A DNA stretch of 62,781 nt, counting the filler, from Stramenopiles sp. TOSAG23-2 (lineage: Eukaryota): the NCBI GenBank assembly GCA_900128395.1. It is 13 parts of 13 records of this genome, joined end to end, with 100 filler letters (N's around TTAATTAATTAA, not from the genome) between each part and the next. Parts side by side here need not be neighbours in the genome. Positions count along the whole stretch, not along the records: positions 49,251 to 54,590 come from LT650688.1; 12 more parts are not named here. The stretch is one strand, 5' to 3'. Both the position numbers and the translations under genes were made by a program. The notes beneath the pieces were generated by a model. The model saw only the letters and a program-made list of their open reading frames with translations. It was not told the DNA's origin and made no database searches. The stretch's first letter is position 1, and each line of letters begins with the position of its first letter. Positions 11,941 to 58,808 of the stretch are shown in pieces.

Positions 11941-12157
11941 GCCTAGAAAAGCGGACAGTTAGTCCCTGCTGTGTCTATGGACAAAAGCGGACAAATAACC
12001 CCTGGTGTGTACGGCCTAAAAAACGAAGAATAACCCCTGGTGTGTACGGCCTAAAAACGGACAAATAACCCCTGCTGTGTACGGCCTAAAAACGGAAGAA
12101 TAACCCCTGGTGTGTACGGCCTAAAAACGGAAGAATAACCCCTGCTGTGTACGGCCT
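11941..12157. repeat. GC-rich 35-bp minisatellite, about 5 copies plus a degenerate lead copy
   Basis: AATAACCCCTG(G/C)TGTGTACGGCCT at 11994, 12029, 12064, 12099 and 12134. Confidence 0.95.
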
Positions 12158-16777: not shown

Positions 16778-16919
16778 CTATTCCTTAATACAACTATATA
16801 GGTAGTGAAAGTATACAAGATGGTCGTGCTATTCTACCATAATTTAGGGCAAAATTATGGTAGAATAGCACGACCATCTTGTATACTTTCACTTCCTATA
16901 TAGTCGTATAAGGGCATAG
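16778..16919. repeat. Long inverted repeat (hairpin)
   Basis: Perfect 42-bp arms 16804-16845 and 16852-16893 with a 6-nt loop, extended about 25 bp with mismatches. Confidence 0.95.
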
Positions 16920-18782: not shown

Positions 18783-19724
18783 ATGCAACAACGTAAAAGT
18801 AAAAGAAAGAGAAAGAGAGCAACAAAAATCATTCCAGACATTTCTACAAAAGCTAGAAAATTGCGTATAGCAGAGGAAGAAAAAGCAAAAACAGCAGAAG
18901 CAAAACGTTTAAAGAAAGAACAAGCTGAACTAGCTGCTACGAAAAAACGTGAAGACGAAGAAAAAGCAAAAACAGCAGAAGCAGAACGTTTAAAGAAAGA
19001 ACAAGATGAATTAGCTGCTGCTACGAAAAAACTTGAAGACGAAGAAAAAGCAAAAACAGCAGAAGCAGAACGTTTAAAGAAAGAACAAGATGAATTAGCT
19101 GCTGCTACGAAAAAACTTGAAGACGAAGAAAAAGCAAAAACAGCAGAAGCAGAACGTTTAAAGAAAGAACAAGATGAATTAGCTGCTGCTACGAAAAAAC
19201 TTGAAGACGAAGAAAAAGCAAAAACAGCAGAAGCAGAACGTTTAAAGAAAGAACAAGATGAATTAGCTGCTGCTACGAAAAAACATGAAGACGAAGAAAA
19301 AGCAAAACAATTGGAAGCAGAACGTTTAAAAAAAGAACAAGCTGAATTAGCTGCTGCTACAAAAAAACATGAAGACAAAGAATTAACAACAACAACAACA
19401 ACAATAATTAATGATGATGATGATCAATTTGGTTTCTCAAATGATGATGATGATTTTCATAATAATGATGATGATTCTGCTGCTGAAAAACAAGATGCAT
19501 TAGCACGTTTAAAGGAAGAACAAGCAAAGAAAGAACAAGATGATTTAGCAGCTGCTAAGAAAAAGCACAGAGAGGAAGAAAAGGCAAAAAACATGAATGC
19601 ATTGATTGGGCAATTACAAAATAAACAATCATCTATGGTTATTGATGTGACTACAGATGTACCTGTAAAATTCAATGATATTGTGAAATCTCACTTCACA
19701 TTCACCATGCACCAGATCGATTAG
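18783..19724 (+). CDS. Charged helical protein with ~6 x 28-aa (84-bp) tandem repeats; probably the 5' part of the downstream transposase gene
   Basis: Unit EDEEKAKTAEAERLKKEQDELAAATKKL at about 18873-19377; NLS-like N-terminus; ends in the BED-finger-like IVKSHF. Confidence 0.7.
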   Translation: MQQRKSKRKRKRATKIIPDISTKARKLRIAEEEKAKTAEAKRLKKEQAELAATKKREDEEKAKTAEAERLKKEQDELAAATKKLEDEEKAKTAEAERLKKEQDELAAATKKLEDEEKAKTAEAERLKKEQDELAAATKKLEDEEKAKTAEAERLKKEQDELAAATKKHEDEEKAKQLEAERLKKEQAELAAATKKHEDKELTTTTTTIINDDDDQFGFSNDDDDFHNNDDDSAAEKQDALARLKEEQAKKEQDDLAAAKKKHREEEKAKNMNALIGQLQNKQSSMVIDVTTDVPVKFNDIVKSHFTFTMHQID

Positions 19725-49250: not shown

Positions 49251-49578
49251 TATTACTATTATAAACATTTGAATATATTACTTTTAATGGGTGCGACGTT
49301 TTTCTATCAAGACCTGCCCAACCTGTACCACCCGTAGTAGTTTTGTATGCTTTTAGATCTCCACAATACTTTAGAATAGTATCAATTGTCATGTTTCTAT
49401 ACAAATGGTGAATGTCAGTTATGATTACCGGAATATCTTTCAATGCATACTTCGTGTAGAATTCTAGTAAAGATAAGCCCGACACCCTTTCAATGGAAAC
49501 AGTTTTGACTGCATTTACTTTATTAAATGATGATATAATCATGAAATAGCAAATGCATATGATTATTATTACTTTCAT
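49251..49578 (-). CDS. Second copy of the 5' end of the secreted JmjC gene, truncated by contig end
   Basis: Matches 51995-52322, and about 50 bp upstream also match. Confidence 0.8.
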
Positions 49579-50131
49579 GTTGTTATATATTATTATTTAT
49601 TCAATATTAATATACATATAGATGCTTTTTTTCCTGTTATCATATTATATAAAATGTTATCCTATTGATGGTTGATAATTTTTCATTTTATATACATATC
49701 TATATCTATATATATATGTACGCAAAAAAATTATCACAAAAGACATGTCTTGCTTTTTACTTTTTTATTTTCTTCTTCTTTCCTTCTTCCATCTTCCACC
49801 TTCCAGTGTGTCCAGTCGCCAGTCTTCTTCCTTTTTGCCTTTTTTAGTATTATAAAAATAGAGGACTTTAACTTTTGGTCTTTTGGTGCTTTCCTGGTGC
49901 CCTGGCTTTCCAGCTTTGCACTTTTTACCAGGTAGTAAAAGTTGATCGTTATTAATAATAAGAGCTATACTAATACAGTATTATAGGCTAGACTATAATA
50001 GAGGCTATCTGGCTTAGGCTATCTGTGGCTATCCAGGCTAGCTATCCAGGCCTCCTGAAAGATAGCGATAATATTTTAGACTTAAAGGCGACTTTAACTT
50101 ATAGACTATTAAATTTCATATTTAAGGTGTT

Positions 50132-52322
50132 TTAATTGTTATCTGTATCGTGAATGAGATCATCCCTATTGTAGTAAACTCTAGCTACATTTTCCTTCAA
50201 TGCTAACGCATTTAAAGGTTCGTCCACCTTATCCATATACAAATCTGTTATATCTTGTCTAAAATGTACGCCTTGCATCGCTGGTATAATTTCATCCCAA
50301 GCAATCAGGTTATCCATTATTATAGAAGTTTTTCTCAATATTTGACTAACACCTTTTTCCGAGTAAACGATAGCCCAACCTCCCCATGACCGACCCGGTT
50401 TCAGTAAATTTTCTGAATATTCCTTGTCCACGCCTAATTTATGTCTTGCTAAGTAAAGCATGTCCCAATCCTCAGGCAATTCATGCCATACATTTCGCAA
50501 CTTGAATAACATATCGTCGTTAAAATGGACGTCATCCTCTACTACAATATTAATATCAACTGGATCGTTTTGGATATTTGCTAATGATCCTAAATGACTC
50601 AATGTACACCCTAGCTCACCCTTTGTAATGTCTCTCGTGTAATACTTGCAACCTCTTGAAGCTCTATTTTCAAAAGGGCATTCGCCTTTCCACTTTTTGT
50701 AAGGTATAGCTGGGACATAATCCCAGACTTCTGTACCATTGATTGCTGGAAAGTGTATTGCATTGACGATAAAGTTCTCAGGGACCTTCAAGTTATCAAT
50801 GCGATCATACATTTGCATTAAACGGTTGGTTCTCATGCTAATAATATGAAAATTAACATGCCGCGACACTGTCAAATACCTTGTTCCAGACATGGCCGGT
50901 TTCCCGTCTACAATGTAAGATGAATAAAGAGATGAAAGTTCTTCAAGCCAGGCAATATCAACAAAATCATCAGTACCTTCATTACCGTCGCCTTCCATTA
51001 CTTCTGTAAGATGAATAAAGAGATGAAAGTTCTTCAAGCCAGGCAATATCAACAAAATCATCAGTACCTTCATTACCGTCGCCTTCCATTACTTCCATGA
51101 CTTCCATAACCTCTTCCTCTTCCTGAGTAACTGCATTTTCATCATCATCCAAAATATCATAATAATTACGTAATAAGTTAAGGTGTTCCACACCAATAAT
51201 ATCTGGATATTGCAAAAATTGTGTTTTATATTCCATCCATGACATATAATCATCTTGATTGAGTCTTATACGACGATCAAATGTATTTTTCAATAATGTA
51301 TTTTGCAATTGTACATAATACTCGGCAGTACTGCCTTTAATAACTTTTTCCATCGAATCCATCTCTGTAATCGAAACAATATTACCGGCCAATGCAATGG
51401 TATTACCAATATTTTTTACTTGATGCGGACAATTACCAGGGATGAATATAAATTCTCCTTGCTTCACTGTGTCATAATAATGAATGATGTTGGATTGTTG
51501 ACCTTCGTCATCTTGTTCTCCTTTGGAAAAAAATGTATAATCATATGGAAAATTAACAACTGGTGATAATACATGCCATTCTTTTGTCCCATCGATGACA
51601 TATTGCCAAAATGCACTACCTAATACATCAATATGTAGACCACCAAATGAATTGTTTTTGCCAATAAATAAACTAGGCCAAGCATCACGATAATGTAATG
51701 GGGGAATACCTGGGGGTACACGTTGTAAAAAATCTTGTGCAATGTATTTTGGTATTAAATAATTATCCCTCAACAACTCAGAACAATGCCGACCAAGTGA
51801 AAAATCAAAGACACCATAATTATTGTCTTCATCGTTATTATTATTACTATTATAAACATTTGAATATATTACTTTTAATGGGTGCGACGTTTTTCTATCA
51901 AGACCTGCCCAATAATTATCCCTCAACAACTCAGAACAATGCCGACCAAGTGAAAAATCAAAGACACCATAATTATTGTCTTCATCGTTATTATTATTAC
52001 TATTATAAACATTTGAATATATTACTTTTAATGGGTGCGACGTTTTTCTATCAAGACCTGCCCAACCTGTACCACCCGTAGTAGTTTTGTATGCTTTTAG
52101 ATCTCCACAATACTTTAGAATAGTATCAATTGTCATGTTTCTATACAAATGGTGAATGTCAGTTATGATTACCGGAATATCTTTCAATGCATACTTCGTG
52201 TAGAATTCTAGTAAAGATAAGCCCGACACCCTTTCAATGGAAACAGTTTTGACTGCATTTACTTTATTAAATGATGATATAATCATGAAATAGCAAATGC
52301 ATATGATTATTATTACTTTCAT
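50132..52322 (-). CDS. Secreted JmjC 2OG/Fe(II) oxygenase fused to a COLGALT-like GT25 glycosyltransferase; 648 aa after removing 91-bp and 153-bp exact duplications
   Basis: Signal peptide; JmjC PVIITD, GGLHID..FWQYVIDGTKEW, GEFIFIPGNCPHQVKN; GT25 AING, TKGELGCTLSH, VEDD, DWDMLYLAR, WDEIIPAM. Duplicated units 50914-51004/51005-51095 and 51758-51910/51911-52063. Confidence 0.78.
50890..50909 (-). repeat. 20-bp inverted repeat, left copy
   Basis: Reverse complement AGACGGGAAACCGGCCATGT is identical to 53213-53232. Confidence 0.95.
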
Positions 52323-52961
52323 GTTGTTATATATTATTATTTATTCAATATTAATATACATATAGATGCTTTTTTTTTTCCATTTAGACTGCAAGGTGGT
52401 GGGTATTGTGTTGTTTATTGTAGAATAATAATGTAGTAATATATATACGTCCCCATAAAAACATCACAAACTACACGTCGCGTTTTATTTTTTTCTTTCT
52501 TTCTTCGCCAGTCCTTCTTCTTTTCCTTTTTCCTTTATATTTTATTTATTAACTTGTAACTTACTACTCCAGTACTGGCTTAGTGCTTTTAGTCCTGAAC
52601 TTAAACTCCTCTCTGGCTACTCAGGGAACCCCAGGAGGAACCCCACTATTATATGCCAGTATGCTGCTACTCATATACATTATGGCATAGCTCCTCAATC
52701 AAGAGTGAAGTGCACGAAATAGACGAGGGCACCGTGTAATTATGGCAGCTCATAAGTCTAATTCTACATACAGGTACAGTAATACTGGTAACAGATTAAG
52801 ATAGTACCAGTCGTCTGCTGTTGTAAATGGTGCTTACAGCGACATAAAAATATAAATACTGTAGATCAAAATTAAAAAAGCCACATAAGTCTCCTGTCTC
52901 TATATGCATAGTAGTTTTTCTGCATTTGCAGAATTATACGTTGGGGTGATTCTGTGCATAA

Positions 52962-53270
52962 GAGAAAGCAAACCTTCCCAACGTCCACATCATTACGGCG
53001 CCCCATACCCCTGCATTGGACTTGGCGATTTTGGCGAGTTGTGACGCTGTCATTATGACTATTGGTACCTCTGGATGGTGGGGTGGATGGTTGTCTGGCG
53101 GCGAGGTCGTGTACAAAAAAGACGCGTTTTTGATGGACCATGAGTTAAACAAAGGCAAGCCTGGCAAGGTGGTGGTGGCGGACCACTATCCAGAGGAGTG
53201 GGTGGGTCTGGGAGACGGGAAACCGGCCATGTTGGCGTATTTTTTTACGAATTATTTTATTTTAAAATAA
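52962..53270 (+). pseudogene. C-terminal fragment of a GT11 (alpha-1,2-fucosyltransferase-like) gene, GC-rich
   Basis: DLAILASCDAVIMTIGTSGWWGGWL..VVY...DHYPEEWV; in-frame stop at 52959 upstream. Confidence 0.75.
53213..53232 (+). repeat. 20-bp inverted repeat, right copy
   Basis: AGACGGGAAACCGGCCATGT; lies at the edge of the GC-rich tract. Confidence 0.95.
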
Positions 53271-53606
53271 ATATTTTTTTTATTATTTTTTTATTTTTTT
53301 TACACAAAAATTTTTTTATTCACTCTTATTTTTTTATTATCATTATGTATCATATTTTTCATTTTTAAATTTTAATTTTATCATATGTATCATATCAGAT
53401 CTTTTATATATCATTGAATCTCATATTAATAATATATATATCTGCATAAGAAATACCGTTCGTATTTTTCTATATATTTATGTTGACATATTTTCTATAT
53501 ATATATATATATGCATATCTACACACACACACACGCAAGAATATATCTCATATTTCTTATTTTCTTTTTCCTATCATATTTTGTCATTATAGCGGGGCAT
53601 GGTTCA

Positions 53607-54590
53607 TTAATTTGCATGTATACCCTGGAATCCGCGCAAACCTCTATCACCTGTTGCACCTTTTGCACCTCTTAAACCTGTTATACCGCGCGGGCCAGGG
53701 ACTGTTGATGCAGGACCAGGTATACCACGTAGACCAGATGGACCTTGGATACCTTGAATACCCTGAAGACCTTGGATACCACGTGTACCAGTTTTCCCAG
53801 CAACGCCGGATGGACCTGTTGTACCCGTATTACCTTTTGGACCTGCAGGGCCCATTTCACCACGTGGAGCTGCAAATTCTATCCATGTGTTGTTGCCTAC
53901 GTTCAAACGAGGCAGGATAGTTGCATTAAATGTTGTTTGCGCAATAAACAGGGATGATTCACTTGCTTTTTTTGTTGATGGTTGGATTACATAATCTCCA
54001 CGATTATATATTTGTCCCAATTTGAAATCTTTATAAATCAAGCCGGTTCCATCATTTCCTTTTTCCCCTCGTCCACCCATCGGGCCTGTTGGTCCATCAT
54101 TACCTTTGTCACCTTTCGATCCGGGTGCACCAGCAATACCTTGCGGTCCCTTCTCACCTTTCTCCCCACGAGGAGCATGATATTCAGCCCAATTGTCTAA
54201 ATCTTCGAAAGGCAGCTTATCTGCGACTATGCTATCCTTTTTCGCGATGAACATGGAATCTACTGTACTGGAATTGCTAGATCTTGAAAAGACATAGTTT
54301 CCACGTACATATGTATCGTGCAGTTTGAAAGTTACGAATTTTAATCCAACGCCATCATTACCTTTCTCACCCTTTTCACCTTGTACACCAGGATCACCTT
54401 TTGGCCCAACATGTCCATTAACACCATCTCTACCGTTTGCACCATTTGCACCATCCCTACCATCATGTCCATTAACACCATCTTTACCAGCTACACCTTG
54501 TTTACCTTCAGGTGCTTTGAATTCCACCCAATGATTTTTGTCCAACTCTTCTGATGGAGATTTTAAGGCTGTAAATGCTTTTGCAGCAAT
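53607..54590 (-). CDS. Collagen-like protein (Gly-X-Y tracts alternating with ~60-aa globular modules), 5'-truncated
   Basis: Three (GXY)n tracts; repeated module GL..F.L..Y.RG.YV..S.FIA..P..W.E..AP; frame open to contig edge. Confidence 0.92.
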   Translation of the reverse strand: MAAKAFTALKSPSEELDKNHWVEFKAPEGKQGVAGKDGVNGHDGRDGANGANGRDGVNGHVGPKGDPGVQGEKGEKGNDGVGLKFVTFKLHDTYVRGNYVFSRSSNSSTVDSMFIAKKDSIVADKLPFEDLDNWAEYHAPRGEKGEKGPQGIAGAPGSKGDKGNDGPTGPMGGRGEKGNDGTGLIYKDFKLGQIYNRGDYVIQPSTKKASESSLFIAQTTFNATILPRLNVGNNTWIEFAAPRGEMGPAGPKGNTGTTGPSGVAGKTGTRGIQGLQGIQGIQGPSGLRGIPGPASTVPGPRGITGLRGAKGATGDRGLRGFQGIHAN

Positions 54591-58275: not shown

Positions 58276-58500
58276 CCAGACAAATTTTAATTACTGGCAA
58301 TAGCTATTGACAGAACCCTATTTATAACTATATCTGGAAACGAGTTTGTGCTATGATAGTGCTAATATCGGATATTTATATTGACACAAATCTATTAGTT
58401 TTGTAATTTCGGTCAACTGGCAATAGCTTTTAGCACAAAATATGGTATTTCAGTGCTGTGTAATGCTAATAGCTATTGCCAGTAATTAAAATTTATCTGG
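58276..58500. mobile_element. MITE-like 225-bp element with 33-bp terminal inverted repeats
   Basis: CCAGACAAATTTTAATTACTGGCAATAGCTATT versus the reverse complement of 58468-58500, one mismatch; no clear TSD. Confidence 0.7.
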
Positions 58501-58556: not shown

Positions 58557-58808
58557 AAGTATAAATTATGTGTCATTTGATTGAAATAAATCGATAATTT
58601 TAATATTTCTGATATTCTAATTTCCCTTTCAAGTATAACTTATGTGTCCTTTGATAGGAATAAAAATCGATAATTCATATTTCTGATATTCTAATTACCC
58701 CTTCAAGTATAAATTATGTGTCATTTGATAGGAAATAAATCGATAATTTTAATATTTTCGATATTCTAATTTCCCCTTCAAGTATAAATTATGCATCATT
58801 TGATAGGA
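58557..58808. repeat. ~74-bp diverged tandem repeat, about 3.4 copies
   Basis: AAGTATAA.TTATG at 58557, 58631, 58705 and 58780. Confidence 0.92.

Follow-up and report, generated by a model that had tools for sequence, protein, structure and literature searches.

An exact 20-bp inverted repeat at a JmjC-GT25 locus of Stramenopiles sp. TOSAG23-2: a probable DNA-repair scar in a gene with exchangeable C-terminal modules

Introduction

How did an exact 20-bp inverted repeat come to lie with one copy inside the linker of a JmjC-GT25 fusion gene and the other at the end of a GT11 fragment, and is it a switch, a scar or an artefact? The locus belongs to the eukaryote Stramenopiles sp. TOSAG23-2 (GCA_900128395.1, here G000; 9146 contigs, 32.8 Mb in total) and was analysed within a stretch of 62,781 nucleotides, the window, which holds 13 eukaryotic contigs with N-linkers between them. 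The repeat-bearing contig, C3690 (LT650688.1, 5340 bp), occupies positions 49251-54590, and a Pfam scan confirms its JmjC, GT25 and GT11 domains. A one-off DNA-repair scar in a hypervariable gene appears to be the best explanation, with a probability that we put at roughly 0.62; the module-swapping locus around the scar is more interesting than the repeat.

Results

The inverted repeat

50890-50909, minus strand: left repeat copy, DGKPAM in the JmjC-GT25 linker, crossed in frame by the outside protein P0051
53213-53232, plus strand: right repeat copy, into which the GT11 fragment runs on naturally, with AT-rich non-coding DNA after it; its junction is unseen outside the assembly

The preliminary description of this DNA had reported a perfect repeat read as DGKPAM at both places, and translation of the two copies bears this out. 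The pair is exact over 20 bp, has 60% G+C and is not extendable; by chance, about 6e-5 such pairs would be expected in a contig of 5340 bp, and 0.008 across the window. Across the whole assembly, with up to 3 mismatches allowed, the 20-mer occurs at these two places only, and a reversed control gave none. Among exact inverted repeats of at least 14 bp in the 13 contigs (C3690 without its right end) it is the sole G+C-rich pair, the remaining pairs being AT-rich or close hairpins. Flipping the interval in silico gives an in-frame GT11'-GT25 of 342 aa, stop to stop, and a short-tailed JmjC of 408 aa, counted from Met, which agrees with the frames proposed earlier. By our estimate, an unselected 20-mer at the apparent decay rate of the GT11 fragment would most often stay unchanged, so its perfect identity needs no selection.

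The JmjC-GT25 gene and its left junction

51005-52322, minus strand: JMJD6-like JmjC gene, with hydrophobic N-terminus, H-x-D...H triad and a match to the JmjC profile
50914-51004, minus strand: exact 91-bp tandem duplicate of the JmjC tail, a frame-breaking assembly artefact without counterpart in P0051
51758-51910, minus strand: exact 153-bp tandem duplicate inside JmjC, an assembly artefact found neither in P0004 nor in the paralog
50910-50913, minus strand: 4-nt filler from the JmjC end to the repeat, which together with its flanks resembles the opening 20 nt of the sister GT11 (ATTG..TAGAC)
50858-50889, minus strand: linker remainder SGTRYLTVSRH, not in the GT25 relative P0001
50132-50857, minus strand: GT25 module (GT25a), COLGALT1-like, 83-86% identical to the GT25 of P0001

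As assembled, the exact 91-bp tandem duplication puts JmjC and GT25 out of frame. The 91-bp and 153-bp duplicates are absent from the outside proteins P0051 and P0004, respectively, and reducing them to single copies leaves one stop-free frame of 648 aa. Its layout would be a probable signal peptide, a JMJD6-like hydroxylase and a COLGALT1-like GT25. GT25a scores above the PF01755 cut-off, its GE.GC..SH and EDD motifs align to COLGALT1, and the nearest solved relatives are the JMJD6 lysyl hydroxylase for the JmjC half (E 1e-11) and COLGALT1 for the GT25 half (E 8e-9). The likely product is a 648-aa secretory hydroxylase-galactosyltransferase, an activity suggested by homology only. Further exact duplicates of 96-132 bp are present in other window contigs (five) and in other fetched contigs (two), while an eighth match in the window scan is part of a natural 84-bp array.

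The join between the two halves can be compared with an outside sequence. A search with the GT25 part covered 1.84 billion representative proteins and returned 2 matches at E < 1e-30. P0051, from a single 878-bp contig in ENA, has the order JmjC tail, YIVDGKPAMSGTRYL, GT25, and crosses the left junction in frame with 163 of 164 residues identical, without the 91-bp duplicate. The single V-to-I difference suggests that P0051 represents another allele. Because P0051 crosses JmjC-DGKPAM-GT25 in frame, the left junction is, on this comparison, natural and not an amplification chimera. P0051 and P0052 break GT25a at the same place, near residue 117 of the query; the part before the break lies in P0051, the part after it in P0052, and each is joined to unrelated sequence.

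The same comparison bears on the idea, raised in the preliminary description, that the layout is an amplification chimera. That the whole layout, JmjC-GT25 included, arose in this way is extremely unlikely. The assembly does carry many artefacts and the library behind P0051 is of unknown type, yet the same in-frame junction recurs in what is probably another allele, the JmjC-GT25 architecture returns in 10 of 28 scanned relatives, and the left junction is not confined to this one amplified library, as a chimera of multiple displacement amplification (MDA) would be.

The GT11 fragment and its right junction

52969-53212, plus strand: GT11 3' fragment, 92% identical to the full GT11 of C6131 and C1431, without N-terminus and with the F of TFGWW changed to S
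52911-52981: ecdysteroid-kinase-like gene piece of 72 bp, 96-97% identical to C6765 and C4935

The fragment holds the last 79 of about 266 GT11 residues, with a stop upstream, and the F that it has replaced is kept in 17 of 17 homologs. The remnant of 245 bp differs from the sister copy by a 9-bp insertion, 5 silent changes and 3 replacements. Its 5' end joins the kinase piece over a 13-nt imperfect overlap. At the other end, the match to the sister GT11 of C1431 extends 4 of 5 bases into the repeat, the tails reading GDGKPAMS on this contig and GDDAPLS in C1431. This supports the view that the 20-mer belongs to the GT11 tail, and the linker remainder SGTRYLTVSRH is probably old GT11 tail as well. 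The earlier suggestion that the word came from GT11 and that a GT11-GT25 order is ancestral thus gains support, and probably holds. Another GT11 gene lies on C1314 (L016:97-2634), where a LicD-like domain is fused to it in 845 aa.

It is conceivable, if unlikely, that the left junction is natural and the right one (GT11 fragment, repeat, collagen flank) a chimera or misjoin, so that no inverted pair would exist on one molecule. At least three pieces were put together at exact duplications to make the contig, nothing outside the assembly crosses the right junction, and 85% of MDA chimeras are inverted, with up to 21 bp of complementarity, in the accessible text of PMC1855051. However, the fragment is 8% off the sister GT11, which makes it a distinct copy that has diverged and not the product of a switched read, and no duplication seam is seen at the right copy. 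For such a chimera, either the 20-mer or the GT25 start would also have to exist in a third copy that went unseen, and only two copies of the 20-mer and one GT25a were found.

Sister alleles and the proposed origin

Two other contigs, C6131 and C1431, open on 55 nt shared exactly with the JmjC tail and then run in frame into a full GT11, leaving JmjC at the same base as the left junction of C3690. At that junction, the bases after the JmjC end (ATTG, TAGAC) are contained, as a sub-string, in the opening 20 nt of the GT11 in C6131 and C1431; the pattern ATTG..TAGAC, picked after the fact, occurs in none of 48,975 host 25-mers. Since the break falls 4 nt from the sister GT11 join and the filler echoes the GT11 start, an earlier JmjC-GT11 join is suggested, and since filler and flank echo that start, AGAC would have stood at both ends of GT11.

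The ancestor was probably JmjC-GT11-DGKPAM-GT25a, within which the GT11-GT25 order would be the ancestral one. Breaks at both GT11 ends, sharing AGAC microhomology, would remove GT11 and join JmjC in frame to GT25a, and joining one AGAC copy to the other, with the loss of 10 more bases, would give the observed in-frame junction. The last 265 bp of GT11, with the 20-mer, would have ended inverted 2.3 kb upstream, patched with the kinase-gene scrap and now decaying. The same layout would follow equally well from two routes: a pair of nested inversions, of which the second involved a staggered break, or a deletion at microhomology accompanied by an inverted templated insertion. Under either route the repeat would be a by-product and not a recombinase site. 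Formerly unique sequence is indeed duplicated in inverted orientation at both ends of the block, and inverted duplications of this kind are documented at one-off inversion breakpoints, for which a staggered-break model is given in the accessible text of Ranz et al. 2007 (PMC1885836).

Several observations weigh against this origin. Support for the left junction from outside amounts to one protein on one 878-bp contig of unknown library type, and P0051 leaves GT25 after 117 residues. The right junction (GT11-repeat-flank) was seen nowhere outside this assembly, and the exact 20-mer had no match in collections of viral or metagenome contigs, from which close records may be missing. Beyond the 5 bases, the two GT11 tails have no significant similarity in DNA (196 of 300 shuffles). 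The link of C6131 and C1431 to the remaining JmjC depends on the 55-nt overlap, and the filler match was chosen after the fact and is also readable as a short fold-back. Finally, sister JmjC-GT11 alleles exist, and the three-part ancestor was not observed: contig and protein searches found no GT11-DGKPAM-GT25a allele, and the GT11 search, within 146-466 aa, gave nothing above 45% identity, longer GT11 fusions not having been searched.

A simpler course would be a single staggered-break inversion that made a new JmjC-GT25 fusion out of a JmjC with a short tail and a GT11-GT25 without a head. Such an event agrees with the geometry, the frames stay open on both sides after flipping, the two ends have a TGT triplet in common, and the two-inversion route also closes with this step. 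Taken as the sole event it is quite unlikely: the break lies next to the sister GT11 join with a filler that echoes the GT11 start, and the DNA right of the repeat does not resemble the 3' flank of the JmjC paralog (220 of 300 and 107 of 300 shuffles reach the score). Nor is it like the flank of the collagen paralog above the level of shuffles. The staggered-break inversion put forward earlier stands in part; a staggered-break or repair origin fits, but the architecture was not newly invented, as 9 of 31 JmjC relatives (E <= 1e-30) carry GT25.

A reversible switch

Shufflons and other programmed inversion systems typically carry multiple copies of their site, or else a site that has dyad symmetry. 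Repeats that are perfect, sit within opposite-strand reading frames and leave the frame intact invite such an interpretation here, as a shufflon-like switch between JmjC-GT25 (648 aa) and JmjC alone (408 aa). The genome also holds four tyrosine-recombinase genes over the Pfam cut-off (C808, C778, C8074, C2339; L128-L131). Their contigs hold other long reading frames, and no mobile-element context was seen. In bacteria, invertons without a recombinase nearby do occur (PMC9881135, accessible text).

Against this, there is a single repeat pair, and the hairpins at its junctions have stems of only 4 bp, the chance level, with no dyad. Even with 7 mismatches allowed, the word is absent from the other module junctions and from the four recombinase loci, the best place, in C1431, having 7. 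The Pfam scan found no recombinase on the 5.3-kb contig, in line with the preliminary description, this contig being short and neighbours beyond its ends not covered; no serine resolvase was found in the genome. The usual driver of a programmed inversion is a recombinase close to the repeats, and the usual demonstration is a set of reads in the two orientations (PMC9881135, accessible text). The GT11 partner is headless and decaying rather than an intact alternative cassette, and the flipped GT11'-GT25 would lack both a signal peptide and the greater part of GT11. Among the 252 fetched proteins, the DGKPAM word occurs in one (P0051), at the left junction as assembled, and a flipped junction in none; this sampling is thin. 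The switch suggested at first is accordingly graded very unlikely.

Other modules on the same JmjC end

The sister contigs diverge after EEWVGLG, where C6131 continues in frame into DUF6492 and C1431 into a short tail and a frame-shifted HtrL; both go on into a second, broken GT25 (GT25b). In C6131 (853-1564, L004), DUF6492 stands in place of the HtrL of C1431, with a short remnant of the HtrL end at its 3' join. The stop of the JmjC paralog at LSSLYS, seen in C8001, in L052 and in 13 proteins of the paralog's cluster, falls at the position of module addition. P0004 matches JmjC in 274 of its first 275 residues and then turns into paralog-like sequence. One host gene end thus carries at least three module strings in the assembly and a fourth ending in an outside protein. 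A JmjC-tail scan of metagenome contigs gave, among at least 599 stretches listed, 2 loci, both of paralog type.

The modules differ in composition. G+C at third codon positions is 0.47-0.64 for GT11, 0.61 for HtrL, 0.36 for GT25a, 0.24 for GT25b and 0.20 for DUF6492, and 0.17-0.26 for host genes (the two JmjC genes and four others). The relationships of JmjC and GT25 also disagree: GT25a is 86% identical to P0001 while JmjC reaches 49%, GT25b against P0012 gives 73% for GT25 and only 58% for JmjC, and P0014 and P0032 share 79% in GT25 and 41% in JmjC. Trees were read for nearest neighbours only; the GT25 tree lacks the distant P0055-P0058, and the JmjC tree lacks P0018. Relatives of DUF6492 occur at 72 viral loci, the best at 87%, many with giant-virus (GVMAG) labels, and its DNA is 88% identical to a viral contig over 709 bp, the match ending near the viral gene end. 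For the JmjC-GT25 relatives, GT25a and GT11, the search for a viral origin gave nothing or matches of 27-34% only; low-score leads (0.78-0.81) point to viral clusters of GT25 with Tet/JBP oxygenase. GT25 and the other C-terminal modules are borrowed, foreign glycosyltransferase modules having been joined in frame to JmjC at the stop of its paralog, and the tail of this gene looks as though it keeps being replaced by borrowed sugar-transfer modules.

The JmjC-GT25 family elsewhere

Rescanning of 28 proteins (27 of the 31 relatives and P0001) found GT25 in 10 and SET in 2, and all 14 relatives checked have a hydrophobic N-terminus and the H-x-D motif. The JMJD6-like proteins P0001, P0007-P0014, P0032, P0016 and P0033 have exchangeable C-termini (three GT25 types, SET and unknown domains), and many GT25 forms among them end in H-D-[ST]-[DSN], often followed by L, N or K. 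Full-text literature searches, judged by the titles and abstract starts listed, turned up no paper describing a JmjC-GT25 fusion.

Setting, sample and further features

49251-49632, minus strand: second JmjC 5' end, an exact 382-bp copy of 51995-52376 with another upstream region, a collapsed JmjC copy or haplotype
52699-52739: 41-bp dispersed repeat in the JmjC upstream region, on many contigs at 92-100%
53607-54590, minus strand: 3' part of a collagen-like gene, 10 of 54 counted G-X-Y triplets with Lys at Y

The two JmjC starts would be either tandem copies or haplotypes collapsed by the assembler, since their upstream regions differ. Patchwork is also seen upstream of the second start, where the intergenic piece 49813-49938 resembles the end of contig C643 at 79% overall, with two parts at 93% and 100%. 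Contig C1298 and the outside contig L053 agree at 97% over 5.7 kb and share, identically placed, a 3' piece of JmjC about 260 bp long (C1298:391-661, L046; L053:166-422), for which reason stray gene fragments are regarded as a natural feature of the lineage. A 63-bp inverted repeat stands at the start of C1298.

Gene content of the window is eukaryotic by Pfam scan (EIPR1, anamorsin, legumain, importin, TPPII). Sequencing runs matching C3690 number 24 as listed (11 studies; 8 RNA), 20 with part of the contig and 6 with at least half of its words, and 5 of these 6 are labelled seawater or marine metagenome. Run matches do not say which part of the contig matched, and were used neither for the junctions nor for GT25 expression.

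Elsewhere in the window are a perfect 42-bp hairpin with a 6-nt loop (16804-16893), a 27-bp inverted repeat 159 bp apart (58282-58494), and tandem arrays at 11983-12157 (35-bp units), 18849-19481 (84-bp, coding) and 58583-58808 (units of about 75 bp). Collagen-like genes in C949, C3911, C6304, C8545 and the window alternate short G-X-Y runs with a recurring non-collagen unit of about 50 aa, which in the gene of the window matched no Pfam family.

Discussion

The inversion breakpoints of Ranz et al. 2007 (PMC1885836, accessible text) likewise show unique sequence present twice, inverted, at block ends and belonging to no repeat family, whereas here only 20 bp are duplicated, a domain is lost, a foreign scrap lies at one end and the fusion is in frame. 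Templated and inverted insertions at DNA breaks (PMC11724301) share short inverted copies and foreign scraps over microhomology; those are reported as fold-backs of 5-34 bp in yeast, while the inverted piece here has 265 bp and lies 2.3 kb away. Bacterial shufflons (PMC9881135, accessible text) also have inverted repeats in opposite-strand coding frames, which would swap the C-terminal part on a constant N-terminus; in contrast, this locus is eukaryotic and has one 20-bp pair (the survey used at least 22 bp), no adjacent recombinase and a dead partner.

In function, the predicted product invites comparison with the complex of LH3/PLOD3 and COLGALT1 (KOGG), in which an Fe/2-oxoglutarate hydroxylase meets a GT25 galactosyltransferase (PMC11897130, accessible text). 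Here a single chain would combine both, with a JmjC fold instead of the PLOD domain and with an activity predicted by homology. The neighbouring collagen-like protein is a possible, putative substrate, adjacency not being evidence of a substrate. By analogy, the one-chain JmjC-GT25 could do on collagen what LH3 and COLGALT1 do together. The GT25 family also includes bacterial lipopolysaccharide enzymes (Pfam description).

The rearranging, glycosyltransferase-rich outlier chromosome of Ostreococcus tauri is likewise an unstable part of the genome of a marine protist, where variation under virus pressure was proposed (PMC5082852, accessible text), a driver that would be plausible here; unlike that case, the variation in C3690 and its sisters takes the form of domain-sized swaps within one gene on a host N-terminus, and the virus link is only the source of one module. 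A full eukaryotic shufflon-like locus, in which a JmjC platform captures foreign modules (one from a giant virus) at its stop codon and a reversible GT25 inversion varies a surface glycan, seems very improbable. Its milder form, a selected glycan-diversifying locus with no reversible switch, is a tentative possibility.

As a repeat, the 20-bp pair would be an ordinary scar; as a locus, it exhibits unusual module turnover, with modules of differing base composition, one of them 88% like a viral gene. It also exposes a recurring JmjC-GT25 family with a probable signal peptide, and its one host gene end with several module strings shows domain shuffling under way in a wild protist.

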